Source of the DNA: Mycoplasmatota bacterium
GTDB lineage: Bacteria > Bacillota_I > Bacilli_A > MAG-NZ
DNA: 64,000 nt
Assembly: GCA_018394315.1 (NCBI GenBank)
Contig: CP074575.1
Coordinates: 1,272,615 to 1,336,614, forward strand
Direction of reading: 5' to 3'
Shown here: piece after piece, positions 8,611 through 61,143 of the stretch
How positions within the stretch are numbered: the stretch's first letter is position 1
Layout: each line of letters opens with the position of its first letter
Translations under genes and position numbers: made by a program
The notes under the pieces: generated by a model
The model's database searches: none
What the model was told of the DNA's origin: nothing
Seen by the model: only the letters and a program-made list of their open reading frames with translations

Positions 8611-9693
8611 TTAGATTTTTTTCCTGATTCTTCCTACTAGGAAAATGAATATTGGTAGTGTTGCTAAAAAGAAATCCATGTAAACACCAATTGCGCTACC
8701 TAATTCCCCTAACTCCCAAATGTTCTTGGCTACTATCCAGGAAATCAGGTATATGATTACTAAGTGTATGTTGATAAATGGTTTATAATCTTTGAGATTA
8801 AACAACGACTTAAACATGTTCAATGCACTATAAGTTAAAATTGTGATTATTACAAAATCTGTAAGAAGCCATGCAGATAACAATAACGATTCCATTCCAC
8901 TTAAAAATCCTAACAATTCTACGTTTTTAACTGAAATCCAGAATGATAGTGAAGAATTTGAAATAATTGTATGCCCTAGCTTACCTATGCAAGCTAAAAT
9001 AATAAGAGTCTCAAGAACAAATATATAAAAGCCCGCTTTAAATCCTTGTATTAGAAATTCGTTTTTCTTAGTCCATTCATGGCTAAAGAAGAATAAACAA
9101 GGTAAGCATATTAGGGAAGTTGATCCAATACTTCCTTTAAAAATTGGAACTACGTCTAAAGTACTAATTGGTGTTATATTACCTATTTTAATATCTGGAA
9201 TCATTAATGCAATTATAACAGTAATGGAAATAGTTACTATTAAAAAAATTGTTTCACTCATTCTAGCAATTATTACAACACCAGACTTAATAGTAATCGA
9301 AACCAAATACAATATAACTATAAGAAATATATTGATGTCCACATTTGGGTAAACCAAAGTTACTAGTGTCTCTCCATAAAATCTTACATACCAAACTAAA
9401 AGATATGTCACCCATATTATATACAATAATACAATCACTTTTCCTATAAATCTTGATGTGATATCATTTAAGATTTCAGCATATGACTGTGTGTTATATT
9501 TCTTGAATAATTTACTACTTGCGTAAACTATAGCTAAAAATATGATAAGTGTAATAACTGGAGATAACCACGCAGCCTGCTTTGCTTCACCAGCGACATA
9601 AGTTGGAAGAAATCTAGCAGAAGGTGTATAAACTGCAATTATAAAGATAATCATTAATTGCTTTACAGATATTTTACCCTCACTTTTTAACAT
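8611..9693 (-). CDS. GerAB/GerKB-family spore germination permease
   Basis: KISVKQL N-terminus, AKQAAWLS, G..IIARMSE, NITPI; about 10 TM segments; GGAG RBS. Confidence 0.8.
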   Translation of the reverse strand: MLKSEGKISVKQLMIIFIIAVYTPSARFLPTYVAGEAKQAAWLSPVITLIIFLAIVYASSKLFKKYNTQSYAEILNDITSRFIGKVIVLLYIIWVTYLLVWYVRFYGETLVTLVYPNVDINIFLIVILYLVSITIKSGVVIIARMSETIFLIVTISITVIIALMIPDIKIGNITPISTLDVVPIFKGSIGSTSLICLPCLFFFSHEWTKKNEFLIQGFKAGFYIFVLETLIILACIGKLGHTIISNSSLSFWISVKNVELLGFLSGMESLLLSAWLLTDFVIITILTYSALNMFKSLFNLKDYKPFINIHLVIIYLISWIVAKNIWELGELGSAIGVYMDFFLATLPIFIFLVGRIRKKI

Positions 9694-11775: not shown

Positions 11776-11862
11776 TTTACAATAGTGAATTCAATGTTAA
11801 AATAGAGTTAATAAAATTTATGAAAGTAATAATATATTTTTAATATTATATTAGGTGATCTT

Positions 11863-12786
11863 ATGTATAGGCATATATCAGTATTATTAAATGAAGCTAT
11901 CGAGAATTTGAATATAAAGACAGATGGAATTTATGTAGATTGTACCTTAGGTGGAGGAGGGCATTCGTCTGAAATTCTCAAAAAGATAACTAATGGGCAC
12001 TTATATTGTTTTGATCAAGATGATTATGCAATTGAAGTTGCCAAAGAAAAGCTGAGTAAAATTTCTAATAACTATACAATTATTAGGAGTAACTTTGTAA
12101 ACATTAAGGAGAAATTGAAAGAGCTTGGAATAGAAAGGGTAGATGGCATTTTGTATGATTTAGGTGTTTCATCTTTCCATTTTGATATTCCTGAAAGAGG
12201 TTTTAGTTATCACTTAGAAGCAGAGCTTGATATGAGAATGGATCAAAATCAAGAAATTAGCGCTTTAACTATTGTGAATCAATATTCTTTAAGTGAATTA
12301 ATAAGTATCTTTTCTAAATATGGAGAAATAACATATTCTAAGAGGCTAGCGGAAGCTATTATAAAGGCTAGAAATGATAAAGTTATTAATACTACAAAGG
12401 AGTTTGTTGATATAATACTTAATGCTACTCCAGCCGCTATAAGAAGGAAAGGGCATCCCGCAAAAAAAGTTTTTCAAGCAATAAGGATAGCAGTAAACAA
12501 TGAATTAGATGTATTTCAAAAATCACTTGAAAGCTCGCTTAGTATTCTAAGATCTAAGGGAAGGGTTGTAGTTATTTCATTTCATTCTTTAGAAGATAGG
12601 ATAGCGAAAAGAACTTTTAATAATGCAGTCAAAGTAGATATACCGAAAGGACTTCCTATAAGGGAGGCTGAAATACCTAGAGAATATAAAATAATAACAA
12701 AGAAACCTATAATTCCTTCTATTGAGGAGATAAGTAATAATAGTAGAGCTCATTCAGCGAAATTAAGAGTTATAGAAAAATTATAA
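11863..12786 (+). CDS. rsmH: 16S rRNA m4C1402 methyltransferase
   Basis: HISVLL, VDCTLGGGGHS, DLGVSS, LDMRM, FQAIRIAVNNEL, SFHSLEDR. Confidence 0.97.
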   Translation: MYRHISVLLNEAIENLNIKTDGIYVDCTLGGGGHSSEILKKITNGHLYCFDQDDYAIEVAKEKLSKISNNYTIIRSNFVNIKEKLKELGIERVDGILYDLGVSSFHFDIPERGFSYHLEAELDMRMDQNQEISALTIVNQYSLSELISIFSKYGEITYSKRLAEAIIKARNDKVINTTKEFVDIILNATPAAIRRKGHPAKKVFQAIRIAVNNELDVFQKSLESSLSILRSKGRVVVISFHSLEDRIAKRTFNNAVKVDIPKGLPIREAEIPREYKIITKKPIIPSIEEISNNSRAHSAKLRVIEKL

Positions 12787-12790
12787 GAGA

Positions 12791-12811
12791 AGAGGACTTC
12801 GGTCCTTTTTT
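12791..12811 (+). terminator. intrinsic terminator between rsmH and spoVD
   Basis: AGAGGAC-TTCG-GTCCTTT with C(UUCG)G loop and T run. Confidence 0.8.
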
Positions 12812-12839
12812 CATATTCAAGGGATTTTTATCATAAATT
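12811..12839 (+). promoter_or_regulatory. candidate sigma-E promoter for spoVD-murE-mraY-murD
   Basis: TCATATT-N14-CATAAATT, matching the B. subtilis sigma-E consensus in both elements and spacing. Confidence 0.7.
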
Positions 12840-12854
12840 TAAGTGGTGATAAAA

Positions 12855-14762
12855 ATGAACAAGTTTACAATTCAGCGTAGGATTATGATGGTCATACTAT
12901 CAATCATCTTTCTTTTTTTATTAGTAATAATTAGGATGAGCTATCTACAGATAATTAAGGGACCAATGATTTCGGAGTTAGCTATTGATTTGTGGGAAAG
13001 AAGTATACCGATTGATGGTCAAAGAGGCAATATTTATGATAGAAACGGTGAATTAATAGTAGGTAATAAATTATCCCCTAGTGTAGCGGCAATTAATAGA
13101 CAAGTTTCTAATAAAGAAGAAACTGCGCTTTTCTTGGCGGGAGTGTTGAACACCTCGTATGAAAAAATATATGATCATTTAAATAAAAATGTATCTATAG
13201 AGTTGATTAAGCCAGAGGGTAGGAAAATATCCTCAGAACAAGCAAGAGAAATTGTAAGAGCGAATTATCCAGGAATTTATGTAGTAGGTGATACAGAAAG
13301 GTTTTACCCATATGATTCATACTTAGCTCAAGTGTTGGGCTTTACAGGAATTGATAATCAAGGGATAGCAGGGATAGAGTATTATTATGAAAACTTTCTA
13401 ATTGGAAAAGACGGCGGTTTAAAAATAGTCACTGACGCAAAAGGTAACTATATGCATGATATAGTTGGGAACTATGAGTATCCCAATAAGGGCTTAGATG
13501 TTTATCTAACAATAGATATTGGTGTACAAATGGTGATGGAAAGAGTCATTGAAAATGCAGTTGCTAGATACTCTCCTGAACAAATGTTAGGTTTAGCGAT
13601 GAACCCTAAAACTGGAGAAATATATGCAATGGCATCTTATCCGACTTTTGAACCTGGTAATTATCAATCTTATCCACAGGAGATATATAATAGAAATCTG
13701 CCTATATGGATGAGCTATGAACCAGGAAGTACTTTTAAGATTATTACTTACGCTGCTGGATTAGAAGAAGGAGTTTTTACTCTAGATGAGACTTTCAACG
13801 ATCCAGGATTTTATATGGTAGATGGAGCGAGATTAAAGGACTGGAAAAAAGGCGGACATGGAACACAAACATTTTTAGAAGTTATTCAAAACTCATGCAA
13901 CCCTGGATTTGTAGAGATAGGGTTAAGGATTGGTGAAGAGGCTTTTTTTAAATATGTTAACGATTTTGGATTTGGATCGAGAACAGGTGTTGATTTATTA
14001 GGAGAGTCAACAGGAATTGTTTTTAATCCTGAAGTGATCGGCCCTGTTGAGTTAGCAACTAGTGCTTTTGGACAGGGGAATTCTGTTACCCCAATTCAAC
14101 TTGTAACTGCAGCAAGTGCAGCTGTTAACGGTGGAATTCTGATGCAACCATATATTCTAGATAGTGTAGGGTATGGTGATATGGAAGAGATCGTTTTTAG
14201 AAATGAACCGACTGTTAAAAGGCAAGTTATCTCTAGTCAAACGTCAGACATAATAAGATATGCTCTTGAAAATGTTGTGGCTAAAGGAACAGGTCGCAAT
14301 GCTTTCATTGATGGATACAGGGTTGGGGGGAAAACTGGTACAGCACAAAAAGTAGGTCCTAATGGAACATATATGGATGGAAATTATATATTATCATTTC
14401 TAGGAATTGCACCGATGAATGATCCTGAATTAGTTGTTTATCTGGCAATTGATAATCCGAAAAATACAATTCAGTATGGTGGAGTTGTAGCTGCACCATT
14501 AGTTAAAGAAGTGCTTCAAGAGGCATTACCGCTACTCGGTATTGAAAAGCAAGACAACCAAATTGATAGAGAAGTAAGATTTTGGATAGATACCCCTTTC
14601 TATGATGTCAAAAATTATATTGGAATGAGTAAAAAGGACGTTAGTAGAAGCCCGTTTTATAATGTGGAAATCAAAGGTGATGGAGAAGAAATAGTTGCTC
14701 AAATTCCTATTCAAGGTGAGAGAATTTTAGAAGGAGGGACAATTGTTTTGTATACTAATTAA
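12855..14762 (+). CDS. spoVD: sporulation-specific class B penicillin-binding protein SpoVD
   Basis: RGNIYDRNG, YNRNLPIWMSYEPGSTFK, FLEVIQNSCNPGFVEIG, GPVELATSAFGQG, KTGTAQK; SpoVD-like rather than PBP2B-like. Confidence 0.88.
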   Translation: MNKFTIQRRIMMVILSIIFLFLLVIIRMSYLQIIKGPMISELAIDLWERSIPIDGQRGNIYDRNGELIVGNKLSPSVAAINRQVSNKEETALFLAGVLNTSYEKIYDHLNKNVSIELIKPEGRKISSEQAREIVRANYPGIYVVGDTERFYPYDSYLAQVLGFTGIDNQGIAGIEYYYENFLIGKDGGLKIVTDAKGNYMHDIVGNYEYPNKGLDVYLTIDIGVQMVMERVIENAVARYSPEQMLGLAMNPKTGEIYAMASYPTFEPGNYQSYPQEIYNRNLPIWMSYEPGSTFKIITYAAGLEEGVFTLDETFNDPGFYMVDGARLKDWKKGGHGTQTFLEVIQNSCNPGFVEIGLRIGEEAFFKYVNDFGFGSRTGVDLLGESTGIVFNPEVIGPVELATSAFGQGNSVTPIQLVTAASAAVNGGILMQPYILDSVGYGDMEEIVFRNEPTVKRQVISSQTSDIIRYALENVVAKGTGRNAFIDGYRVGGKTGTAQKVGPNGTYMDGNYILSFLGIAPMNDPELVVYLAIDNPKNTIQYGGVVAAPLVKEVLQEALPLLGIEKQDNQIDREVRFWIDTPFYDVKNYIGMSKKDVSRSPFYNVEIKGDGEEIVAQIPIQGERILEGGTIVLYTN

Positions 14763-14764
14763 TT

Positions 14765-16111
14765 ATGAAGTTAAGTAAAATATTAAAAAATCTCAGAATT
14801 CTTACTGAGGTAAAAAATCATAAAGTAACCGGGATTTATAATAATAGTAAAGAGTGCACATATAACTCAATTTTTATTGCATTAGGTGGCATTAATAATG
14901 ACGGTAATAATTTTATTGATGAGGCAATTAGAAATGGCGCTAAAACAATAATTACTGAAAAAGATATAAAGAAAGAAGTAAATGTTATAAGGGTTAAAAA
15001 TATAAAAGAAATAGAAGCAAAAGTTGCTAAGGTGTTTTATAAAGATTTATCTAGTAAAATTAAAATCATTGGTGTTACGGGTACGAATGGAAAAACATCT
15101 GTAACCACTCTTTTGCACAATTTCTTAAAACAATGGGGAAGTGTCTTAATTGGAACTAATGGTGCTTTTATAAATGATGAGTTTCATTCTTTAAGCAATA
15201 CTACTCCAGATATACTTACTACTTACAAATTCTTAAAAGAAGCAGTTACTAGACATTTCAGGTTTGCTGTAATGGAGGTATCATCTATAGGCATAAGTGA
15301 GTATAGAGTTCATGGATTAGCATTTGAATATACTATATATACTAATATTTCGCACGATCATTTGGATTATCATAAAACTACTCAGAATTATATAGAGGCA
15401 AAAAGAAAGCTATTAATTCAAACCAAAAGACATAATTTGATAAACAAAGATGATCATATCTTGTATAACTTTAGAGACTTTAGAAGTATTTATTATAGTT
15501 TGAATGAGGTTGAAGTATTAAGTGAAGAGCCATTAATTTTCAAGTTTAATGATTCAAGATATTATTCTAGATTATATGGTAAGTTTAACGTCTATAATAT
15601 AATGGCTTGTATTAAAATTTTGAGTCTAATGGGTATCAATCTAATAAAGTTTAAAGAGTATCTTAAAGACTTTAAGAAAATAGATGGAAGAATGAATGTT
15701 TATTCGGTCCAAGATAAAAAGATAGTAATTGATTATGCACATAGCCCAGGTGCTGTAAAGAATGTGTTAGAGACTTTTAAGGGTTGTGTAGTTATTGGGT
15801 GTGGTGGAGATAGAGATATTTTAAAAAGAAAGGTTATAGCAGAGATTTGTTTGGACAAAGCAGAGTTTAGTGTTTTTACATCAGATAACCCAAGAACGGA
15901 AAGTTTATATAAGATATTTAATGATATGACCTTTGGACTAAAGGGAGATTATTTGATTATACCTGATAGATATAGTGCGATTGAGTACGCAATCAAGAAC
16001 TTTAATACAATTCTTATTCTTGGTAAAGGGAATGAAGAATTCCAAGTTGTAGGGAATAAAAAAATCAGGTTTAGTGATTTGAAAGCTGTAAAGAGGATAC
16101 TTAAGGAGTGA
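14765..16111 (+). CDS. murE: UDP-MurNAc-tripeptide ligase, meso-DAP type
   Basis: GVTGTNGKTS, MEVSS, DHLDYH, DYAHSP, GCGGDRD, DNPR, GKGNE. Confidence 0.92.
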   Translation: MKLSKILKNLRILTEVKNHKVTGIYNNSKECTYNSIFIALGGINNDGNNFIDEAIRNGAKTIITEKDIKKEVNVIRVKNIKEIEAKVAKVFYKDLSSKIKIIGVTGTNGKTSVTTLLHNFLKQWGSVLIGTNGAFINDEFHSLSNTTPDILTTYKFLKEAVTRHFRFAVMEVSSIGISEYRVHGLAFEYTIYTNISHDHLDYHKTTQNYIEAKRKLLIQTKRHNLINKDDHILYNFRDFRSIYYSLNEVEVLSEEPLIFKFNDSRYYSRLYGKFNVYNIMACIKILSLMGINLIKFKEYLKDFKKIDGRMNVYSVQDKKIVIDYAHSPGAVKNVLETFKGCVVIGCGGDRDILKRKVIAEICLDKAEFSVFTSDNPRTESLYKIFNDMTFGLKGDYLIIPDRYSAIEYAIKNFNTILILGKGNEEFQVVGNKKIRFSDLKAVKRILKE

Positions 16112-16115
16112 TTAG

Positions 16116-17084
16116 ATGATAGTTATATTTACCTTTGTTTTTTCATTGATTGTTACAATTATTTTATTATTGCAATTAATTCCAAAATTAGAGCAACTTC
16201 GTTTTGGACAAATAGTACGCATAGAAGGACCTAAAAATCATTTGAAGAAGGGTGGAACTCCAACTATGGGTGGAATTGCATTTATAGTAGGATCACTTAT
16301 AGCCGTAGCAGTAATTTCTCTTATAAATGAATGGGAACATGAGCAGTACAAGGTTGCGATTCTCTTTTTTCTTCCTATGATTTTTTATGGTGTATTAGGA
16401 TTTGTTGACGATTACTTAGTAGCTATTCGTAGAAACAATATAGGAATAAAACCTAGTATGAAATTCTTCTTGCAAATTATGCTATCTGTATTATATTTCT
16501 ATATTTATCTATCCTTTGATATGGATACTGTAATAAGAGTTTCAAGTTATGAATTTGATTTAGTATGGGTTTATGGTATATTGATACTCTTAATGTTTAC
16601 ATCATCTTCTAATGCAGTTAATTTAACTGACGGATTAGATGGACTAGCAACAGGTTTAATGATTATCGCATTACTCGCATTTTCTACAATCGCATTTGAG
16701 ACAAACTATACTTTATTTATAATCATAATTAGCGTTATAGGTAGTTTAGTGGCATTTTTACTATTTAATAAAAATCCAGCGAAGATTTTTATGGGAGATA
16801 CTGGATCTTTAGCTTTAGGAGCAATACTAGCTGCAATTGCAATCATCTTGAAAAAGGAACTTTTGCTAATAGTTATAGGTGGGGTCTTTGTTATTGAAAC
16901 TTTATCCGTTATTTTGCAAGTCGCATACTTTAAAAAGACAAAGGGAAAAAGAATCTTTCTAATGTCTCCCTTGCATCATCACTTTGAACTAAAAGGGATG
17001 AAGGAGCATAGTGTAGTGGAGATGTTTTGGGTAATGGGATTTTTGTTTGCTATTCTAGGACTATATCTTAATGGGGCGATATAA
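16116..17084 (+). CDS. mraY: phospho-MurNAc-pentapeptide transferase
   Basis: KGGTPTMGG, GFVDDY, NAVNLTDGLDGLA, FMGDTGS, PLHHHFE. Confidence 0.96.
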   Translation: MIVIFTFVFSLIVTIILLLQLIPKLEQLRFGQIVRIEGPKNHLKKGGTPTMGGIAFIVGSLIAVAVISLINEWEHEQYKVAILFFLPMIFYGVLGFVDDYLVAIRRNNIGIKPSMKFFLQIMLSVLYFYIYLSFDMDTVIRVSSYEFDLVWVYGILILLMFTSSSNAVNLTDGLDGLATGLMIIALLAFSTIAFETNYTLFIIIISVIGSLVAFLLFNKNPAKIFMGDTGSLALGAILAAIAIILKKELLLIVIGGVFVIETLSVILQVAYFKKTKGKRIFLMSPLHHHFELKGMKEHSVVEMFWVMGFLFAILGLYLNGAI

Positions 17085-18193
17085 TGATTTTAATTTTAGG
17101 GAGTGGAGTTACTGGGAAAAGTGTTGCTAATTACTGCGAAAAACATAGTCTTGACTATACTTTTGATGAGACTAGTGATTATAGAGTAGTTGTTAAAAGC
17201 CCAGGAATAAAATATAACAACAGGATTGTAGTAGAAGCATTAAAAAAAGGAATAGAAGTAATTTCAGATATTGAATTAGCTTATAGATTACATAAAGCTT
17301 ATTACATAGGAATAACTGGAACAAATGGAAAAACTACTGTCGTATCTTTAATAAAGCACATATTTGAGGTAAACAATATAGATTGTGAAGCTGTTGGTAA
17401 TATTGGTAATCCAATTTTTGATCATTTGGACAAAAAAATATTAATAATAGAATTATCATCTTTTCAATTACTAGGGATAAAGGAATTCAAGCCAAACATA
17501 GCTTTAATAACTAATATTTCAAGAGCGCATATGGACTATCATGATTCTTATGAAGAGTACATAAATGCAAAGCATAGAATACACATGAATATGGAAAAGG
17601 ATAATGTGTTTGTCAACTCTAACATGAATAGTGATTTGAAGAGTTATAATGATAAGGTTATTGAATTCGAAAGTAGTTTAATAGGGGAACATAATAAAGA
17701 AAATATGCTAGCGGCTTATACTGTTGCTAAGTGCTATGGTTTAGAGCCTGAAAAGATCAAAGCTGCGATAAAAACATTTAAAGGATTAGAACATCGAATA
17801 GAAGAATTTATTCCAAATGTGTTTAATGATTCAAAGGCTACTAATCCAGTAAGTATGTTAAAAGCGATCGAGACCTTAGATGATGAATTAACATTAATAT
17901 GTGGAGGTCAGAATAGACACGAGGATTTTAGTGTGCTTATACCAGTTATAAACAAGATTAAACAAGTTATTTGTTATGGTGAGACAAAAAACATATTAGT
18001 AGATTTTTTTAGTAAGCATTCGGTTAATGTGTTGGGTGTAAATACTTTAACTCAAGCAGTACAAATAACAAAATTGATTAAAGAGCATAATCAAATCTTA
18101 TTTTCACCGGGATGCTCAAGTTTTGACCAGTTTAAAAGTTACCGAGATAGGGGTAAAAAATTTAAGAAACTTTTTGTTCAAAATATGTATTAA
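17084..18193 (+). CDS. murD: UDP-MurNAc-L-Ala:D-Glu ligase (short, 369 aa)
   Basis: KSPGI, GITGTNGKTT, GNIG, ELSSFQL, GLEHRIE, NDSKATN, SPGCSSFDQF. Confidence 0.92.
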   Translation: MILILGSGVTGKSVANYCEKHSLDYTFDETSDYRVVVKSPGIKYNNRIVVEALKKGIEVISDIELAYRLHKAYYIGITGTNGKTTVVSLIKHIFEVNNIDCEAVGNIGNPIFDHLDKKILIIELSSFQLLGIKEFKPNIALITNISRAHMDYHDSYEEYINAKHRIHMNMEKDNVFVNSNMNSDLKSYNDKVIEFESSLIGEHNKENMLAAYTVAKCYGLEPEKIKAAIKTFKGLEHRIEEFIPNVFNDSKATNPVSMLKAIETLDDELTLICGGQNRHEDFSVLIPVINKIKQVICYGETKNILVDFFSKHSVNVLGVNTLTQAVQITKLIKEHNQILFSPGCSSFDQFKSYRDRGKKFKKLFVQNMY

Positions 18194-18275
18194 AGTGCTA
18201 TAATATAGTGGAAAAGAAAGAATGAGATTAATTTTAGAAATATGAAAGAAGATATAATTAGTCTCAGGTGATACA

Positions 18276-18833
18276 ATGAACGTAATATTTGGGGGTGTCT
18301 TCAACCCACCAACCTTAGCACATTTTAAGGCTGCGGAAGAAATAAAGAAACGTTTTAATGTGAAGGAATTTATCTTTTTACCTGTTGGATTAAACTATGA
18401 ACTTAAAAATGTTTTAGAGGATGTTCACAGAGTAAATATGCTAAAAATAATGGCTAAACTGCTTGATGCAAAGGTTTCATTAATAGAAATAGAAAATGAT
18501 GAATTTTTAGGTACATATAGGACACTTAAAATGATGAATCTATCTGATTCTTATTTCTTGTTAGGATCAGACAATTTATATTCTCTTGAAAAATGGAAAA
18601 ATGCAGAGTTATTAATGGAAGAATTCCGTTTTATTGTTTTAAACAGGCAAGATAATATTCTAAAAGTTATTGAAGATAGTGAGTTTTTATCTAAATACAA
18701 GAATAGATTTACTATCATTAATGATTTTAACTATAATATTTCTTCAACAGAATATAGAAACAATTTTGATAACGAATTCTTGTTAGATGAGGTAGCAAAA
18801 TATATTAAAGATAATGGGTTGTATAGGAGGTAA
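18276..18833 (+). CDS. nadD: nicotinate-nucleotide adenylyltransferase
   Basis: FGGVFNPPTLAH, LLGSDNL, ISSTEYR; adjacent to nadE; TGnTATAAT extended -10 at 18196-18204. Confidence 0.88.
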   Translation: MNVIFGGVFNPPTLAHFKAAEEIKKRFNVKEFIFLPVGLNYELKNVLEDVHRVNMLKIMAKLLDAKVSLIEIENDEFLGTYRTLKMMNLSDSYFLLGSDNLYSLEKWKNAELLMEEFRFIVLNRQDNILKVIEDSEFLSKYKNRFTIINDFNYNISSTEYRNNFDNEFLLDEVAKYIKDNGLYRR

Positions 18834-34231: not shown

Positions 34232-34900
34232 TTATTCTAATAATTGCAAATACAATTTCATTAGAGCTCTTTTTTCAATTCTAGAAACATAAGATCTGGA
34301 GATTCCCAAGTCATTAGCGATATTTTTTTGCGTTTCAGGAATATTTTTTTCTAATCCGTACCTACGTATAAGAATTACTAATTCTCTTTCTGAAAGAATT
34401 TTTAAGGCCTTTTTTAGCTTAATTATACTTTCATCAAGAATATGCTGATCCTCTAGAGATTCTGATTCATCTGGCATGATATCGATAAGAAGTATTTCAT
34501 TACCTTCTTTGTCGTACCCTATAGGTGAGTTCAGTAATGTTATATTTCTTTTTTTCTTATTAGACCTTAATTGCATAAGAATTTCGTTTTCAACGCATCT
34601 AGCTGCATATGTAGCTAATTTGGTTGCACTTGGGTGCTTATATGTATCTACTGCCTTTATTAAACCAATTGAGCCAATTGAGAGTAAGTCTTCTTTGCTC
34701 TCTCCGGTATTTTCAAATTTTTTTACAATATGAGCTACTAGTCTTAAATTGTGTTCAATAAGTTTATTTCTAGAATTCTTATCGCCTTGTTTCATTCTAT
34801 CTAAATAGAATAACTCCATTTCAGGGGTTAATTTCTCTGGATATGAAGCGGATTTTATCATTCCTAAAATAGGGAAAATGATATTCAAGATATTAAACAT
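34232..34900 (-). CDS. sigK: sporulation sigma factor SigK (uninterrupted)
   Basis: LIEHNLRLVAHIVKKFENTG, LATYAARCVENEILM, PIGYDKEGNEI.LID, ISRSYVSRIEKRALMKL; hydrophobic pro-sequence-like N-terminus. Confidence 0.93.
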   Translation of the reverse strand: MFNILNIIFPILGMIKSASYPEKLTPEMELFYLDRMKQGDKNSRNKLIEHNLRLVAHIVKKFENTGESKEDLLSIGSIGLIKAVDTYKHPSATKLATYAARCVENEILMQLRSNKKKRNITLLNSPIGYDKEGNEILLIDIMPDESESLEDQHILDESIIKLKKALKILSERELVILIRRYGLEKNIPETQKNIANDLGISRSYVSRIEKRALMKLYLQLLE

Positions 34901-38332: not shown

Positions 38333-38361
38333 AAAATGTCCAATCTGTTGGACATTTTTTT
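38333..38361 (+). terminator. intrinsic terminator ending the yqe operon
   Basis: AAAATGTCCAA-tctg-TTGGACATTTT-TTT. Confidence 0.8.
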
Positions 38362-38416
38362 GAATTTTATAGTAAAATTCTATCTCGACTTAATTATTTA
38401 TTTTGAGGTGATTCAT

Positions 38417-38917
38417 ATGGAAAAAAAATATATTTTGATAGGTGCAGTTATTATAGCTTTAATTTATTATCAAATGAATAATAAACAAGATGATCCTTTA
38501 GAAGAAGTTGTAAGCATTGTTGAAGAAGAGTATGTGTATGTAGATATAAAAGGCGAGATAACATCTCCTGGAGTTTATATGGTGAATTATGGAACTAGAT
38601 TATATGAACTAATAGAACTCGCCGGTGGAGTCACAAGCAATGCAGATATTAGCAGCTTGAATCTTTCAAAAATAGTTGAAGACGAAACGGCAGTTACTAT
38701 CAAACAATTTGAAGATAAGAGTCACAATTTCATTTCGATTAATACGGCAGATCAAATAATGCTTATGACATTACCTAATCTTGGTGAAGCTAAGGCAAAT
38801 GCAATAATTAAGTACCGTGATGCAAACGGTCCATTTGTAAATACAGAGGACATTATGTTAGTTCCTGGTATCGGAGAGAGTATTTATGAGTCGATTAAAG
38901 ATTTTATTTCTATCTAA
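38417..38917 (+). CDS. comEA: competence DNA receptor ComEA
   Basis: TM anchor, VDIKGEI..PGVY SLBB domain, INTA...LPNLG..KA..II.YR HhH; start at ATG after GAGGTGA. Confidence 0.92.
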   Translation: MEKKYILIGAVIIALIYYQMNNKQDDPLEEVVSIVEEEYVYVDIKGEITSPGVYMVNYGTRLYELIELAGGVTSNADISSLNLSKIVEDETAVTIKQFEDKSHNFISINTADQIMLMTLPNLGEAKANAIIKYRDANGPFVNTEDIMLVPGIGESIYESIKDFISI

Positions 38918-41009
38918 CAATATAATTTTTATCGCATTTTCTGTCCTTAGCGTAATTTTATCCTTAAGCAATATTTTTCTTATAATCCCAAGTGTTATTT
39001 TCTGAATATGGCTTTATAAAACCAAACTGTTTGAGATATCACTTCTAATAAGTTTAATTGTCGGAGTATTATTTGTAAATTATCAAAACTATCAACCAAA
39101 ATTTTCGAATGATTGTTTAGTTATTGAAAGTTATGATGATAAATCAGTGTGTCAAAGTTCTGATAACTACATTATATATGAGTCATTTGATATAGGGGAT
39201 TATCTAAATGTTAAAGGAGAATATTACATCCCAAGAGCTGCTAGCTCTCCTTTTACTTTTGATTATTCTATGTATTTAAAGACAAAGAAAATATTCTTTT
39301 TAGTATATGAGCCAGAAGTAGAATTCATAGGAAAAGAGAAAACAATTTATGATATAAGGGAATATGTAAAAGACTATATTGATACATTTCCTGAAAAAAT
39401 TCGTGCATATCTTTACGCACTTATTATTGGAGATAAATCATTACTTGATGATGATGTTGTATCTAATTTAAGTGATGTTGGTATAATTCATCTCTTTGCT
39501 ATTTCAGGCTTACATGTTGGACTAATATGTATGATATTTAGGAAACTATTGTCAGTAATTCTAAATGAGTCTACTGTAGATAATTTATTAATTATTTTTC
39601 TGTTAGTATATATCGTTGTAGCAGGTTTCAGTCCTTCAGTGTTAAGAGCGAGTGTCATGTATAGCTTAAGTATAGTATTTAGGAAATTTAGAATTCCTTT
39701 TTCAAGTTTAGATATAATTAGTATTACTTTTATTTTATTCATACTTATAAATCCATATTATATCTTTGATATTGGATTTCAGCTATCATTCTTGGTTTCA
39801 TTGTTCTTGGTTTTAGGTTGGAGAATAATAGAAGGTGACGTTATTAGACAAGTACTCTTTGTAAGTATTTTGGCGCAATTAGCTACTCTACCATTAATTG
39901 TTAACTTAAACAATGAGTTAAATCTCTTCAGTATTTTTTTTAATGTAATATTCGTAATTATCATGGGATATATTTTTTTACCTATGACATTTATAAGTTT
40001 CTTCATAAGGATGTTTAATAATTTGTATGGACAATTAATAATAGTTTTTGAAAATCTGTTGAATTCGGTAAATGATTTCAGCTATATCATCAGAGTAGGT
40101 AATATTCATGTTCTATTTATTATAATATATTATGTCTTTTTGTATTTGTTTTTAGTTAATACTGAAAACAAGAAAAAATACTATACGTTTTATATAATAA
40201 TGCTTTGTTTGCTATTTTTGAATAAGGTTAATCCGGTTGGAGAAGTTTATTTTTTAGATGTAGGTCAAGGTGATAGTACATTATTTAAGAGCCCTTTTAA
40301 TAGTTGTAATGTTTTGATAGATACTGGAGGGAAACAACGAAGTAACATTACTGAAAATAATGTAACACCTGTTTTAAAGAGTCTTGGAGTAGAGAGAATT
40401 GATTATTTTGTTTTAACACACTCTCATTACGATCATGTGGGTGGAACAAAAGAAATAATAGACTCATTCAAGATACATAATCTTGTTGTGAGTAAATATA
40501 ATAGTGGTGAGATGATTAAGGGTTATATTCAACAAGCTAAAAGACGTGGTATAAACATTATTTATGTGAATAAGGGTGATTATTTTGGCTGTAACAATGA
40601 ATATAAAGTTATTGCTCCTAGTAAGTCTTACGATTCAATAAATAATCAATCCATCGTTTTAGAAGCCTCCATTTTTAATAAAAAGTGGTTATTAATAGGA
40701 GATTCTGAACTCAAAAAATTTTCATCAAGTAATATTGATATTTTGAAAGTAGGTCATCATGGATCAGATACATCTTTGGATGAATCATTATTACAGGAAC
40801 TCAAACCAAGTACTTCTATAATATCTGTTGGTATAAATACCTATGGTTTACCTTCGAGGAATATATTAGAACTACTAGAAAAATATAGAGTTAGAACTTT
40901 TAGAACTGATGTTTCTAAGACAATCATATATCTAGATATAGGAAATGGTATATTTTATTCTACTAAATCATATAATAATAGTATCTTAGGGAAACCTAAG
41001 ATCTTATAA
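38886..41009 (+). pseudogene. comEC: ComEC DNA uptake channel with an in-frame TGA at codon 40 (possible nonsense allele)
   Basis: HLFAISGLH, SVLRA, GFQLSF, LDVGQGD, THSHYDH, KVGHHGS; ATG 38886 overlapping comEA is in frame with the 39147-41009 ORF, separated by one TGA at 39003-39005. Confidence 0.75.
40948..40976 (+). promoter_or_regulatory. candidate sigma-E promoter inside the comEC 3' end
   Basis: GTATATT-N14-CATATAAT. Confidence 0.6.
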
Positions 41010-42365: not shown

Positions 42366-42502
42366 TTTTCCACCTCCACACCTAACATTGATATTTTATC
42401 AAACTGATGTTAATAATGCAATACTTAAAGATAATATCATCATAACTATGAGGAATAATTTTTTTTTATATAGTAATAATATTCATAGAAAGGAAAGTGA
42501 TT

Positions 42503-43552
42503 ATGAAAGATATAGATTTAAGTAATTATCAACCTCGAACCGATTTAGCATACGAAGAAATTGAGGCAAGCGAAAGTAATACTGGAATAATGAACGAAGA
42601 ACTTCATATGGGAGAAGTGAAAATATATAAAACCAGTATTGATGAAAGAGGGGAACAGTTATTAGGTAAGAAGAAGGGATTATATCTTACTGTCGATACT
42701 ACAGGTGTTATAACACAGGACCATGATGAGTTAGTGAAAATTCAAGATGCTCTTGTCGAGACCCTCGGAATGATGTTTACTCATTTAAATATTGGTAAGG
42801 ATGATAAATGTCTGGTAATAGGGCTTGGAAATGATAAAGTAACTCCCGATGCTTTAGGACCCGTAGTTATTGAAAATATTCTAGTTACTAATCATATCTT
42901 TGAGATTCAACCAGAAAACGTTGAGGAAGGTTATAGACGTGTTTGTGGTGTAATACCAGGCGTAATGGGTGAAACGGGTATAGAAACATACGAGATTGTT
43001 GATGCAATTGCTAAGAGAGTTTCACCAGACTTTGTTGTTGTAGTTGATGCACTTGCTGCTAAGAGTATTAAAAGAGTTAACAAAACTATTCAAATTACAG
43101 ATACTGGGATACACCCTGGAAGTGGTGTTGGGAATAAGAGAAAAGAGATATCAAAAGAAACCCTAGGAGTTCCTGTAATAGCTATTGGCGTTCCTACAGT
43201 TGTAGATGCTGTATCGATTACTAGTGATACTATAGATTTTATATTAAAATACTTGGGTCAAGAAATGAATCCAGAACCAAAAGACTTATTGGTTACTTCT
43301 GCATCTAAAAGTATAAATTATGATGATTATACTCCAAAAGAAGAGGTTAAGAAACACTTTTTTGGCCACATCGGATTGCTTGAAGAAGAAGAGAAAAGAC
43401 AACTTATATATGAGGCACTTAGTCCAAGTGGATTTAATATGATGGTTACACCTAAGGAAGTTGATACAAACATAGAAGATTTAGGTATGATAATTTCTAA
43501 GTCATTAGATATAGTCTTACATGAACCCATAAAAGAAAACGCAACATCATAA
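42503..43552 (+). CDS. gpr: germination protease GPR
   Basis: RTDLA, GLGND.VTPDALGP, PGVMGETGIET, DALAA, TGIHPGSGVGNKR, IGVPTVVDA, MVTPKEVD; divergent from rpsT; sigma-G/F-like GAATA-N17-AATAATA at 42453-42481. Confidence 0.96.
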   Translation: MKDIDLSNYQPRTDLAYEEIEASESNTGIMNEELHMGEVKIYKTSIDERGEQLLGKKKGLYLTVDTTGVITQDHDELVKIQDALVETLGMMFTHLNIGKDDKCLVIGLGNDKVTPDALGPVVIENILVTNHIFEIQPENVEEGYRRVCGVIPGVMGETGIETYEIVDAIAKRVSPDFVVVVDALAAKSIKRVNKTIQITDTGIHPGSGVGNKRKEISKETLGVPVIAIGVPTVVDAVSITSDTIDFILKYLGQEMNPEPKDLLVTSASKSINYDDYTPKEEVKKHFFGHIGLLEEEEKRQLIYEALSPSGFNMMVTPKEVDTNIEDLGMIISKSLDIVLHEPIKENATS

Positions 43553-43564
43553 AATATATTGGTG

Positions 43565-43720
43565 ATGATTATTAAAAAGCTAATAATTACTTTAATAGTT
43601 TTATATGTATTCAAGGAATCTTTTATTGGAATAATAGTTCCAACTATAAAAGTATCAATTGATGATCTATTAACAAACCTTACGTCTTTGTTTGGTCCAG
43701 TTAATGTGATTTGGAGGTGA
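43565..43720 (+). CDS. small membrane peptide, 51 aa, in the spoIIP slot; not in ORF track
   Basis: MIIKKLIITLIVLYVFKESFIGIIVPTIKVSIDDLLTNLTSLFGPVNVIWR; start context weak; CCATAAA-N14-CATAAAAT sigma-E-like element at 43527-43555. Confidence 0.4.
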   Translation: MIIKKLIITLIVLYVFKESFIGIIVPTIKVSIDDLLTNLTSLFGPVNVIWR

Positions 43721-43742
43721 ACGGATTAATCAATCTAAAATT

Positions 43743-44015
43743 ATGGAATCTAGATTATTCAAGTATGTTGTTATTTTAGTAATCTTATTTATTGGAGTTT
43801 CTCTAGGAAATAATGATAATGATTTACAAAGTAAACTTGATAGGTTTGAGGAAGAAATTCAGCAACCGTATAACGAACATTCAGGTCAATCATTAGAGGT
43901 ATATGACACTAATGTTATGAATAGCCTTGCTAAGAAATCAGAAAATTTGTTGATGAATTCTTTAGATGTAATAAGAGATGTCGTTAATAGTGTTTTTGGC
44001 ACTTTATTTGGGTGA
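43743..44015 (+). CDS. YqxA/DUF3679-like small membrane protein
   Basis: N-terminal TM ending LFIGVSLG, amphipathic C-terminus, position downstream of gpr; GGAGGTGA lies 22 nt upstream, so the true start may be an in-frame ATT at 43725. Confidence 0.5.
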   Translation: MESRLFKYVVILVILFIGVSLGNNDNDLQSKLDRFEEEIQQPYNEHSGQSLEVYDTNVMNSLAKKSENLLMNSLDVIRDVVNSVFGTLFG

Positions 44016-48822: not shown

Positions 48823-48911
48823 TTAGTTGGCAAGTTGCCAACTTTTTTTTTTGATTGAAAAAAATGATAAAAAAGGATAGAATAAATATATGTATAGCAA
48901 GGAGTGTATCT

Positions 48912-50186
48912 ATGAAAGTAGCAAAGAACATTATAATACTTATTTTATTAAGTTTATTTATAAGAAATTCATTTGATGTGTCGGCTGAAGGTCCATATAC
49001 AGTTACGTTTTTAGATTGGAATGGTAAAGAAATTAGAGTTCAAACAGTTGAGGATGGAGATTCAGCTATTTATTTCGAAGCATTTAGAATTGGACATGAG
49101 TTTGTCGAATGGGATCAGTCACTAGTTAATGTAACTAGCGATATGACTGTTTATGCGGTATATGAGCCGATTGAATATGTTGTTGTATTATTAAATTATG
49201 ATGGAACAATAATAAAGTCTGAAAAAATTCCTTACGGTACAATTTTAGAGCCAGAAGATCCAGATGAAAGAGAAGGATATACTTTTGTTGGCTGGTCACC
49301 TGAAGATATGAAAATCACTGGTGATGTATTTTATAACGCAATCTACGAAGAGACTAAACCGGAAGTACCTGACATACCTGAAGAACCAATTTTGATTGAG
49401 GAAGTAAACATTTCATTAGAGGAAATATTAGTATCTTCAAGCGACCTAGTAATAGCTGAGGTTAGGAATCCTGTATTAATTGAGAAAATTGATCAGATTA
49501 ATAAGTATACTTCTGATAGTAAAGTGATTTTTCCGGAGTTGGTTGTTAGTGATGAAATAGGTGCATCTGTAAAAGTATTTAATAATTCAATAGAAAAGGC
49601 GCTCGAGAAGGAAGTTTCGTTTGATATTAACTTAGGCTTTATTGATATATTAATTAATTCAGCTAACTTAGCTAAAGCGATTGATATTGATGCAGAAAAT
49701 GTTGTATTCAAAGTACAAGAGTCAAGTATTCCTATAAAGCCATTATATAATGTACAAAATATGCAAGGAGAGTCTGTCGACACACCTGTTGAAATAGAGA
49801 TTTTATATAATGATAATCAATCATTTTCGGATGATATAATAATTGAGGTTACAGTTTCACCACTAGACGAAGATGGATTATACGCTGGAGTAGAACCTAC
49901 TGAAGTATCTTTTGTAGAGTATGATGAGGAAAATAATACATACAAAATAATATCTTCTGAGTATGACAGTATAAACAAAGAGTTTAAGATGACTCTTTCT
50001 AAAAGTTCTGTTATTATTCCTATGAAGCTAACTGCAAGTCAAGTTATCGAACCGGATGATTTTAGTTTTATAGATTTTATACTAGATTTAGATCAATATA
50101 TTCTATATATTATAGGTTTTGGATCATTTGTTGTTGTATATGCTATAGTATATATTTATGAGTATTTAAGACAAAAAAAATTATAA
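48912..50186 (+). CDS. surface protein with two InlB B/Listeria-Bacteroides-type repeats and a C-terminal TM anchor
   Basis: signal peptide ending VSA-E; YTVTF..WNG...GHEFVEW...TVYAVY and YVVVL.NYDG...REGYTFVGW...AIY repeats; hydrophobic tail plus RQKKL. Confidence 0.7.
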   Translation: MKVAKNIIILILLSLFIRNSFDVSAEGPYTVTFLDWNGKEIRVQTVEDGDSAIYFEAFRIGHEFVEWDQSLVNVTSDMTVYAVYEPIEYVVVLLNYDGTIIKSEKIPYGTILEPEDPDEREGYTFVGWSPEDMKITGDVFYNAIYEETKPEVPDIPEEPILIEEVNISLEEILVSSSDLVIAEVRNPVLIEKIDQINKYTSDSKVIFPELVVSDEIGASVKVFNNSIEKALEKEVSFDINLGFIDILINSANLAKAIDIDAENVVFKVQESSIPIKPLYNVQNMQGESVDTPVEIEILYNDNQSFSDDIIIEVTVSPLDEDGLYAGVEPTEVSFVEYDEENNTYKIISSEYDSINKEFKMTLSKSSVIIPMKLTASQVIEPDDFSFIDFILDLDQYILYIIGFGSFVVVYAIVYIYEYLRQKKL

Positions 50187-51761: not shown

Positions 51762-52274
51762 TTGAATGAGATTCGCGAAATCGTAACTAAAGCAGTTGTC
51801 GGTAAGGGTAAGAAAAAATTCAACTTAGTTGAACGAGTAAACCCAGCTAACAAGGCCTTTAGTGTTCTAGGATGCTGGATAATCAATAATGATTTTAGGG
51901 CTCTTAAATCTAACTCTGAAGTTAATTTAAAAGGGTCTTTTGAGATAAATATTTGGTATTCTTACGATAATAATTCTAAAACTGATGTAACAAAGAAAGT
52001 AATTACATACAGCAATGTCATTCCAACAACAAAAGTTGTTAATGATACGTTAGGTTCACCTGAGGAAGTTACTGTTAGAATGCTACAGCAACCTACTTGT
52101 GTAGATGCTAAAATAACAGGTGATTCGATTGAAGTAGAAGTGATTTATGAAGCAGTAGCAGAAGTGATTGGAGAAACAAAAATGAAAGTAACGGTTTTTG
52201 ATCAATCTGATCAGTACATCGAAGAAGAAGATTTTGATTTAGATATCGATGAAAACTTCATTTCTGAAGTTTAA
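51762..52274 (+). CDS. cotE: outer spore coat morphogenetic protein CotE
   Basis: REIVTKAVVGKGKK, LGCWIIN, INIWYSY, QQPTC, EVIGETK, acidic tail. Confidence 0.93.
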   Translation: MNEIREIVTKAVVGKGKKKFNLVERVNPANKAFSVLGCWIINNDFRALKSNSEVNLKGSFEINIWYSYDNNSKTDVTKKVITYSNVIPTTKVVNDTLGSPEEVTVRMLQQPTCVDAKITGDSIEVEVIYEAVAEVIGETKMKVTVFDQSDQYIEEEDFDLDIDENFISEV

Positions 52275-59376: not shown

Positions 59377-61143
59377 GTGACAAAAATGAAAGAAAATGAA
59401 CGAAGATTTTTAATCAAGGATATAATAAAACTTTCTAAATTACCCTCAGTTCTAATTAATAATGTTCTCAAAGAAAAAGAGACTTTCTTATCAAAAAGAT
59501 TACTTTGTTATATTTTGGCGCAACAAATTAATATCCAAGTTTCTAATGATAAGGATTTGTCTAGTTTAAGAGGATACGTTGGAGAACTAGAAGATTATAC
59601 TTTGCAACAACTTATTAATTTCGCTGATATTCATAGTATAAGTATAGATCCTAGTGATTTGAAATTTAGAATATGGACAGTGATATTTAATAACCTTGAT
59701 GAACTAAATATTGAAAACGAATTAATAGAAAAATACTTAAATAATACACAATATCGTTTTGAGTATGCAAAAGATATTTTTTTGACATTAGATCAATTTA
59801 TTGATGAAGATAATGATATTGATGGACAACCATTTATTGTTGCTAGAGAGAGTTTGCTTAGATTTTCTACTCGTGAAGAGATAATTTCACTTGGAAAGCA
59901 TCTAGGTATTCATGTTCCTAAAAAATTATCGAAAGATTCATTTATTGAAAATATTATTCAAAAACTAGAAGATGATTCCGCGGAACTTAGGGAAGAGTTA
60001 AGTGAATTAACTCTACCAGAGCTGGAAGAATATGCTGATGAGAACTTTTTGGGACTCAATGCTAAGCTCAGTGTTAAAGATATAATTAATTACATATTGA
60101 ATGATTATCAGTCTCCAACTGATAAAGCTACAACTATAGAATATATTAACTATCTCCAAATACCTTCACTTAATTCAGGGTTTATTGAAGATGAAAATAG
60201 AAATATTGAAGACTTAAGACCTAAAAATGTATTAGATGAATCTTTACTTGATATGATCTCCCAAATAATTAGAGGAGAAGACTATTCAAGCAACGACGAT
60301 ATTTCTGAAGAGAAATCTAAAGTAGAGTTAGATAAAGTAATAGATAAAATTGTTCAAGGTAATGTTTCAAACAAAAAAGAGGATAATGAGGATTTTGATG
60401 TAGAGGACAAGACTTCAGATAAAATTAGCTCTAGAGAACAAGAATTAATGGAACGTTTAGATAGGTTAGAGAATCAATTATCAAAACCTATTGAACCAAA
60501 ATATAAGCAAGAAAACAGCAATGTTATATTAAGTAATGAATTACTGAAAAAATTTGATGAACTAGAGAAGAAGCTTTTTTCTGAACGTAATTCAATTGAA
60601 GTGAAGAGTGATGACTTAGAGAATAAAGATGATACAATCTTATTGGCTAAAATTGATGAATTAGAGAAGAAACTTTCTTTATTAAATGATGAGCCTAAAA
60701 TTGATGAAAGTAAAAATACCGACTTATTGAAGAGACTAAATGAACTAGAAAATAAAATTTCTGAAGTATCTAACAACGAGGTTGACATAGAAGAAGAATA
60801 TGATAATGGGGATTACGTGTATCAAATAAATGAAGAGCCAAATGAGAATTATGAAATGAGTTATGAATTGAAACCAAAGACAGAATCGGATGGACTCGTT
60901 AATAAGTTTGATCCGTTGACTACCGAGAATCAAATAGAAGAGGAAATAGATATCTCAGTAGAGGATGAATCTTCAATTGAGAGTTACATTGAAGAAATTC
61001 ATTCCGCAAAAGGTAAGGAATCTCTGAAAGTGAGACGTAGGAAAACTATTCTACCAATAGTTGTTTTTTGGAAAGCACTCGTGATTTGGGCATTAATAAA
61101 TGCCATTGGTGCAACTATATTTATAATTAATGATTTAATATAA
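59377..61143 (+). CDS. hypothetical acidic protein with helical repeats and a C-terminal TM segment
   Basis: 588 aa; four LxxR/KxxxLExxL repeats; RRRK followed by hydrophobic tail. Confidence 0.7.
   Translation: MTKMKENERRFLIKDIIKLSKLPSVLINNVLKEKETFLSKRLLCYILAQQINIQVSNDKDLSSLRGYVGELEDYTLQQLINFADIHSISIDPSDLKFRIWTVIFNNLDELNIENELIEKYLNNTQYRFEYAKDIFLTLDQFIDEDNDIDGQPFIVARESLLRFSTREEIISLGKHLGIHVPKKLSKDSFIENIIQKLEDDSAELREELSELTLPELEEYADENFLGLNAKLSVKDIINYILNDYQSPTDKATTIEYINYLQIPSLNSGFIEDENRNIEDLRPKNVLDESLLDMISQIIRGEDYSSNDDISEEKSKVELDKVIDKIVQGNVSNKKEDNEDFDVEDKTSDKISSREQELMERLDRLENQLSKPIEPKYKQENSNVILSNELLKKFDELEKKLFSERNSIEVKSDDLENKDDTILLAKIDELEKKLSLLNDEPKIDESKNTDLLKRLNELENKISEVSNNEVDIEEEYDNGDYVYQINEEPNENYEMSYELKPKTESDGLVNKFDPLTTENQIEEEIDISVEDESSIESYIEEIHSAKGKESLKVRRRKTILPIVVFWKALVIWALINAIGATIFIINDLI

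Follow-up and report, generated by a model that had tools for sequence, protein, structure and literature searches.

When does a bacterium make peptidoglycan if the genes for its precursors lie behind what resembles a sporulation promoter? This question is raised by the rsmH-spoVD-murE-mraY-murD locus of a Mycoplasmatota bacterium, found in a stretch of 64,000 nt (the window; contig CP074575.1, C1:1272615-1336614). The closed genome, G000, consists of the single contig C1 (2.17 Mb, 31% G + C, 93.6% complete); L-numbered coordinates below denote its other loci. The original prediction was that precursors are synthesized only in the mother cell, for the spore cortex, in an organism with little or no vegetative wall. 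From the analysis described here we estimate a probability of roughly 0.6 that the organism grows without peptidoglycan and makes peptidoglycan only for its endospore. No described bacterium known to us combines wall-less growth with peptidoglycan synthesis reserved for the endospore.

The sigma-E consensus used here has an ATA-type -35 element, a 14-nt spacer and a CATA-type -10 element. A terminator with a UUCG loop behind rsmH and a sigma-E-type element starting in its T run were both present as predicted. The hairpin AGGAC-TTCG-GTCCT lies at 12793-12806 and the six T at 12806-12811; TCATATT (12811-12817) is followed by a 14-nt spacer and CATAAATT (12832-12839). The 61-nt terminator region folds at -15.8 kcal/mol (z -3.65), as good a fold being obtained in 0/200 shuffles. 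The tight coupling of spoVD-murE-mraY-murD was confirmed, with intergenic gaps of 2, 4 and -1 nt, as was the extended -10 promoter of nadD. The spoVD leader, about which a caveat had been raised, is indeed short (15 nt from the end of the -10 element to the ATG), but not unusual compared with the 14-15 nt at spoIIID and dacB.

The same layout recurs in a second unit. The reported absence of spoVE and murG holds for the window and not for the genome, since spoVE-murG-murB-divIB-ftsZ lies 3.3 kb past the window end (spoVE and murG at C1:1339899-1342022), followed by spoIIGA-sigE-sigG. This unit is downstream of tgt and starts after a T-run hairpin that merges into TTATCTT-N14-CATATAAT, identical in the sister-genus relative G004; in both genomes divIB and ftsZ each carry a sigma-A-type site of their own. 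These sequences show that the cluster of cell-wall and division genes (dcw) is divided in two, spoVD-murE1-mraY-murD and spoVE-murG-murB-divIB-ftsZ, both of them behind a terminator that merges into a sigma-E-type site. Of the single-copy genes mraY, murD, murG, murB and murA, the first four all lie within these two units. The concern that other copies might exist outside the window proved right for murE (murE2, C1:1980673) and not for mraY or murD.

Both terminator-promoter units are conserved in G004. The hairpin between rsmH and spoVD has an equivalent there with a different loop, and the adjoining site reads TCATATT-N14-CATACCTT with a changed spacer. G002 and G029, the latter a member of a neighbouring order, gave looser N14 matches, and the strict pattern was unmatched in 7 of 11 upstream regions. 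In Haloplasma and Haloplasmataceae, TAATA(A/T)(T/A)-N14-AATA was seen by eye before spoVD in 8/8 loci, and TAATAAT-N14-AATATATT before spoVE in all five loci with spoVE in view; these elements are assigned to sigma-E by geometry only, because their first -10 base is A. A divergent gene lies upstream of spoVD in 7/8 Haloplasmataceae loci, making read-through into spoVD impossible there.

In shuffled versions of the 64-kb window, a motif like that at spoVD was present in 27 of 100, so it is not significant by itself and its weight rests on position and conservation. When the genome was scanned with the consensus, 179 sites scored at least 12/15 and five scored 14/15, the spoVD site being among the five. 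Using a sigma-E matrix whose training set was six non-wall sporulation genes (spoIIIAH, spoIIID, cwlD, ylbJ, gerM and dacB, some of them named by position), spoVD ranked 3 and spoVE 14 among 2182 gene heads; spoVB ranked 155. The matrix also selected genes on which it was not trained, namely a cwlJ-like gene (rank 10) and the gene at the spoIVFA position (rank 15), and the geometry at spoVD and spoVE is common with sporulation genes of the same genome. In the genome-trained sigma-A scan, spoVD, murE, mraY, murD, spoVE, murG and murB ranked only 747 to 1860 of 2005. Features of the window are collected in Table 1.

Table 1. Genes and predicted regulatory elements of the window, numbered from its first nucleotide
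Feature	Position	Strand	Remarks
rsmH promoter, sigma-A-type TTTACA-16-TG-TAAAAT	11776..11803	+	rank 92/2005, genome-trained scan
rsmH	11863..12786	+	TIGR00006 over cut-off; mraZ not upstream, ftsL/pbpB not downstream
Intrinsic terminator-like hairpin, C-UUCG-G loop, six U	12787..12811	+	fold and conservation in G004
spoVD promoter, sigma-E-type TCATATT-N14-CATAAATT	12811..12839	+	14/15 consensus; rank 3/2182
spoVD	12855..14762	+	sole class B penicillin-binding protein; first in-frame GTG at 12843
murE1	14765..16111	+	DNPR motif
mraY	16116..17084	+	single copy; no TagO-like paralogue
murD	17084..18193	+	single copy, short (369 aa)
nadD promoter, extended -10 sigma-A-type TTCAAA-16-TG-TATAAT	18177..18204	+	rank 178/2005
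nadD	18276..18833
sigK	34232..34900	-	sporulation cascade context; NF004471 over cut-off
gpr germination protease	42497..43552	+	sporulation context; TIGR01441 over cut-off
cotE coat protein	51762..52274	+	sporulation context; PF10628

The enzymes expected of a walled cell were then compared with those present. There is one SEDS protein, encoded next to murG, and neither FtsW nor RodA was found in the closed genome; in a quick tree (20 rows, midpoint root) this protein clusters with dcw SpoVE and separately from FtsW and RodA (SH-like approximate likelihood ratio test, 99). Transpeptidases number three, SpoVD and two class A penicillin-binding proteins (PBPs). SpoVD has intact STFK, SCN and KTG motifs and is 56% identical to SpoVD versus 30% to PbpB of the walled control genome G020 (50% versus 29% in G011). 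The search confirmed that no second murD or mraY and no pbpB, ftsL, ftsW or rodA is recognizable in the genome, while it did recover murE2 and the class A enzymes PonA and PbpG. FtsA, MraZ, FtsL and PbpB gave no match genome-wide, in agreement with the missing mraZ, ftsL and pbpB of the original prediction; this is a weak test for small divergent proteins, control DivIBs having missed the DivIB of this genome. MreC and DivIC were found in none of five genomes tested. LCP proteins were absent from four of the five, including G000, and occur in four copies in G020; TagO-like matches were limited to G020 and G011. Searches for DivIVA and NlpC/P60 were uninformative, failing in G020 as well, and crude motif searches for sortase and DltA, which prove nothing, also gave nothing. 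Compared with the usual B. subtilis gene order, radC is followed by spoIVF without mreBCD-minCD, yabQ by lysS without divIC, and ylmH by ileS without divIVA. The flippase found is SpoVB-like. In all, the set typical of walled Bacilli, FtsW/PbpB, RodA/class B PBP, MreC, FtsL/DivIC and FtsA, was not recovered. Most of the refuting conditions attached to the original prediction turned out in its favour, and overall it is partly supported.

The distribution of wall genes among relatives follows that of spo0A. Within the family, G000, G001 (55% complete), G002 and G004 have SEDS, PBPs and spo0A, and G003, G005, G006 and G007 (78% complete) have none of these, except for a weak 28.5-bit spo0A match in G005. 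The neighbouring order, which we infer to be ML615J-28, comprises 70 genomes in two families, with spo0A over cut-off in 49. In plain counts over kin that are not independent, SEDS genes occur in 47/49 spo0A-positive (single copy in 46 of the 47) versus 0/21 spo0A-negative genomes, and mraY in 46/49 versus 0/21. A single class A PBP frame of 578-683 aa occurs in 48/49 versus 1/21, the one being G092, which has a spo0A fragment; two of these proteins were placed on the tree, both as PbpG, and the others are called PbpG-sized. Three genera of this order contain both states. In a wider sample of the class, 9 of 18 spo0A-negative genomes retain SEDS genes, so the coupling of wall genes to spo0A is special to the SpoVE-only branch. 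A set of 26 genomes with a SpoVD locus (24 of 28 loci from one listing and two others; biased, and overlapping the other samples) has SEDS in 24/26 and two full-length copies in none, and its PonA-sized frames near 900 aa occur only in genomes labelled Haloplasmataceae. If the wall serves only spores, lineages that lose sporulation have no use for wall genes. It is an even bet that loss of the vegetative wall came before loss of sporulation, many times over; such an order would explain both the repeated wall-less origins and the wall genes of wall-less cultured Haloplasma.

The precursor pathway itself is complete (glmS/M/U, murA, murB, murC, murD, two murE, two murF, ddl, alr, mraY, murG, uppS, uppP and spoVB), with a short and divergent murI (190 aa), and the organism does not share the lack of peptidoglycan genes of classical Mollicutes. 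MurE1 (DNPR; DNKR in G002) and MurE2 (EDPK; DDPH in G020) form separate clades in 7/7 genomes. DNPR-type MurE adds meso-diaminopimelic acid (meso-DAP), and by this rule MurE1 probably adds meso-DAP and MurE2 probably does not. In G000, G002 and G004, murE2 is preceded by a forespore-type GTATA-N14-G(T/A)AAAAAATA, and a sigma-F/G-like scan selected 21 of 2182 genes, including spoIIQ, gpr, ku, spoVAC and murE2. This predicted site fits a role in the germ-cell wall and is also compatible with a vegetative stem. Because of it, and because PbpG is a forespore-type enzyme, restricting synthesis to the mother cell was probably too narrow. A hairpin conserved in the same three genomes covers the ribosome binding site of murE2 (L034:8612-8674); a transcription start inside its loop would free that site. 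The second MurF-like ligase is encoded beside ATP-grasp genes (L-amino acid ligase, YheC/D-like; L035:4971-9895), an arrangement that G004, G010 and G033 share and that may belong to a spore-coat or peptide-polymer pathway.

The genome has the gene content of an endospore former: spo0A, sigF/E/G/K, spoIIE, spoIIGA, spoIID, spoIIQ, spoIIIAH, spoIIID, spoIVA, spoIVB, spoVA, dacB, dacF, cwlD, cwlJ-gerQ, dpaA, small acid-soluble protein genes, gpr and cotE. SigF, encoded after spoIIAA-spoIIAB (L153:6101-6655; C1:1692100-1692654, minus strand), has 184 aa and scores below cut-offs; it keeps regions 2 and 4 with a much shortened middle, and G002 and G004 contain sigma factors about as long. Crude motif tests, which prove nothing, did not recognize spoIIM, spoIIP or spoIIR in the genome, and a 138-aa open reading frame (ORF) at the spoIIM position has no Pfam match. 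In B. subtilis spoIIP follows gpr; here gpr is followed by a 90-aa ORF of no assigned family (window 42497-44015). SpoIIQ and SpoIIIAH were found. Some sporulating Erysipelotrichaceae retain only these two, according to the part of bioRxiv 10.1101/2022.02.25.481979 consulted. Besides the ordinary spoIID, the genome encodes a protein of 563 aa in which a SpoIID domain is combined with several LysM domains (L242:308-1999). A lone GerAB-type germination permease, below cut-off, lies at 8611-9693 of the window (minus strand) with no gerAA or gerAC beside it.

A spore-only wall could operate as follows. During growth, FtsZ with SepF and the paired MreBs would shape and divide a naked membrane in which no lipid II is made. 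After Spo0A activation and polar division, sigma-E would switch on lipid II synthesis in the mother cell, with a meso-DAP stem from MurE1. SpoVB would flip lipid II, SpoVE and SpoVD would polymerize the cortex, and DacB and CwlD would mature it. The forespore would probably add a germ-cell-wall layer by means of PbpG and perhaps also PonA, on a non-DAP stem made by MurE2, and engulfment would depend mainly on SpoIIQ-SpoIIIAH.

Several findings weigh against a spore-only wall. The sigma-E matrix is partly circular, its training sites having been chosen with the same consensus, and it misses spoIID (rank 495) and spoIVA (1464) and ranks dacF 11. No clear sigma-E site precedes murC (246), murF-ddl (447), alr (405) or recU-ponA (1023), and those of murI (46) and murA (76) are suggestive at most. 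The walled G020 has its sole mraY behind a tightly coupled spoVD-murE-mraY-murD, where our sigma-A scan found a background-level site only (7.0; coding median 7.1); the scan must have missed a vegetative promoter there and so cannot exclude internal promoters, although in G011 it did detect a strong site ahead of mraY. In G004 the start codon of spoVD is overlapped by a strong sigma-A-like site (12.6) that could transcribe murE-mraY-murD. Two such sites (10.3 and 9.4) lie inside mraY of G000, within the coding background, and the hairpin after rsmH, having a 5-bp core and six U, may let through some transcription started at the strong rsmH promoter. Internal or read-through transcription of the mur genes may have escaped the scan. 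LtaS-like proteins are present, below cut-off, and endospore formation is predicted here from genes alone. The MreBs count on both sides. The proposed search for mreBCD found four of them, in two tandem pairs, but no MreC and no mreCD beside mreB; the missing MreCD favours a spore-only wall, as do the best PDB matches of these MreBs, 7bvy and 7e1c, which we take to be Spiroplasma MreB, above 7zpt. Each pair belongs to a block of two mreB, an EAL-domain gene and a 343-aa gene that is duplicated in tandem (L036:6241-15849, C1 ~376-386 kb, minus strand), possibly a motility or shape module; G004 also has two mreB pairs and G002 none.

The two class A PBPs and MurE2 bear on the strongest alternative, which we consider possible but unlikely. 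It holds that a thin vegetative wall or septal ring is built by PonA alone, using a non-DAP stem that MurE2 supplies and no Rod system; SpoVD, SpoVE and MurE1 would be spore-specific, and MraY, MurD, MurG and MurB would be supplied at a basal level through leaky terminators or weak internal promoters. In a tree whose references are four Bacillus siamensis proteins, their names presumed from length and neighbours, the 754-aa class A PBP clusters with PonA (100/99), and the 617-aa enzyme joins PbpG (100/100). PonA is intact, is encoded after recU, which is also its place in Bacillus, and has been retained by G002, G004 and Haloplasmataceae; MurE2 is conserved and intact and could make a vegetative stem; divIB is retained with its own sigma-A-type site; and G020 demonstrates that the spoVD-murE-mraY-murD layout can serve a walled cell. 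In C. difficile a class A PBP drives vegetative division, as described in the part of PMC10693644 available, and Field et al. (PMC10868615, likewise in part) interpret gene sets of this kind as indicating a thin wall. Against this, genomes of the neighbouring order have just one class A PBP, which is PbpG-sized, and there all wall genes disappear together with spo0A, H. contractile has PonA with no wall detected, murE2 carries its forespore-type site in three genomes, and LCP, TagO, DivIC, FtsA and MreC were not found.

It is very improbable that SpoVE and SpoVD double as the vegetative FtsW/FtsI pair, with the sigma-E sites merely boosting expression during sporulation. The SEDS protein does pass the FtsW model (371 versus 337.5 bits) and misses the cut-off of its best-scoring family, SpoVE TIGR02615 (382.8 versus 448.8); SpoVD falls narrowly under that of TIGR02214 (683.5 versus 688 bits, positions 1-634 of 636; next family 328 bits), and both units lie downstream of housekeeping operons. 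The tree position of the SEDS protein, the conserved terminators before both units, the failure to find FtsL, DivIC and FtsA, and the absence of SEDS from all 21 spo0A-negative genomes speak against double duty. Least probable is that wall and spore genes are relics and neither structure is made: SigF, MurD (369 aa), MurI and DivIB (213 aa) are short proteins, half of the family retains nothing and spores are predicted from genes, but across genera and families the reading frames are open and the catalytic motifs preserved, promoter geometry is conserved, and G002 and G004 have sigma factors of similar length.

The spore-only reading can also be set beside known systems. Shared with the B. subtilis cortex system are orthologues of SpoVD, SpoVE, SpoVB, DacB, CwlD and PbpG, the sigma-E-type site before spoVD and a residual gene order; unlike in B. 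subtilis, FtsW/PbpB, RodA/PbpA, MreCD, FtsL/DivIC, FtsA and wall teichoic acid genes were not found, the mur genes have no detectable vegetative promoter, and the cluster lies in two halves behind terminators. The roles of the B. subtilis cortex proteins are those given in PMC10693644, in the portion consulted. By the same portion, C. difficile also lacks FtsW/FtsI, has SpoVE/SpoVD as its dcw synthases and has a class A PBP available, but it is walled, with a Rod system and homologues of FtsL/FtsB, whereas in our genome no RodA, MreC or DivIC/FtsL was found and the genes for precursors lie behind sigma-E-type sites.

The closest named proteins are from 'Mycoplasmatota bacterium' zrk1 (PonA 98%) and WC44 (SpoVD 85%, PonA 67%), followed by Haloplasma contractile (SpoVD 63%, PonA 39%) and then Haloplasmataceae and Turicibacter; these two proteins suggest a place on the Haloplasma-related branch of Bacilli. 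H. contractile resembles our organism in these proteins, a full MurE and several MreBs, its named SpoVD, MurE (DNPR) and PonA being full length with intact motifs. It belongs to a different family, whose members keep ftsA and an unsplit spoVD-to-ftsZ cluster. The available parts of bioRxiv 10.64898/2026.06.16.731841 and PMC7301438 describe H. contractile as carrying genes for peptidoglycan although no layer of it was detected, and they explain the genes by storage or decay, not spores. A lack of murE in H. contractile, as stated in PMC7301438, conflicts with the named full-length MurE found here.

The 'thin-wall, fragile-spore' intermediates of ML615J-28 and Anaeroplasmataceae (PMC10868615), for which a thin vegetative wall is predicted, resemble our organism in having spo0A alongside a reduced set of wall genes; genes for wall and spore are mostly lost together. 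That study, in the part seen, uses gene-family counts, with synthases not sorted into spore and growth orthologues and promoters not considered. No published statement of a spore-only wall was found in a literature search that covered few subscription journals, nor in the parts of PMC12516126 and PMC7203096 available; the component parts are known, and the wiring and implied life cycle are new as far as found. If true, a spore-only wall would give the sequence of steps that led from Bacilli to Mollicutes and would settle the long-standing question of why Haloplasma, which has no wall, has wall genes. It would also mean that septation and engulfment occur naturally with no wall in the septum, and would predict that in gut and sediment there are bacteria that grow despite wall antibiotics and whose spores need the pathway. 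Since a cultured relative exists, the idea is directly testable.

Some further features were noted. The window encodes a 443-aa protein with Listeria-Bacteroides repeats (48855-50186), a 588-aa protein with no match in Pfam or NCBIfam (59377-61143) and comEA-comEC (38336-41009). Elsewhere in the genome, type IV pilus/competence-like genes adjoin spo0A (L147:120-6020), and a tRNA-Sec is predicted at C1:712683-712779.

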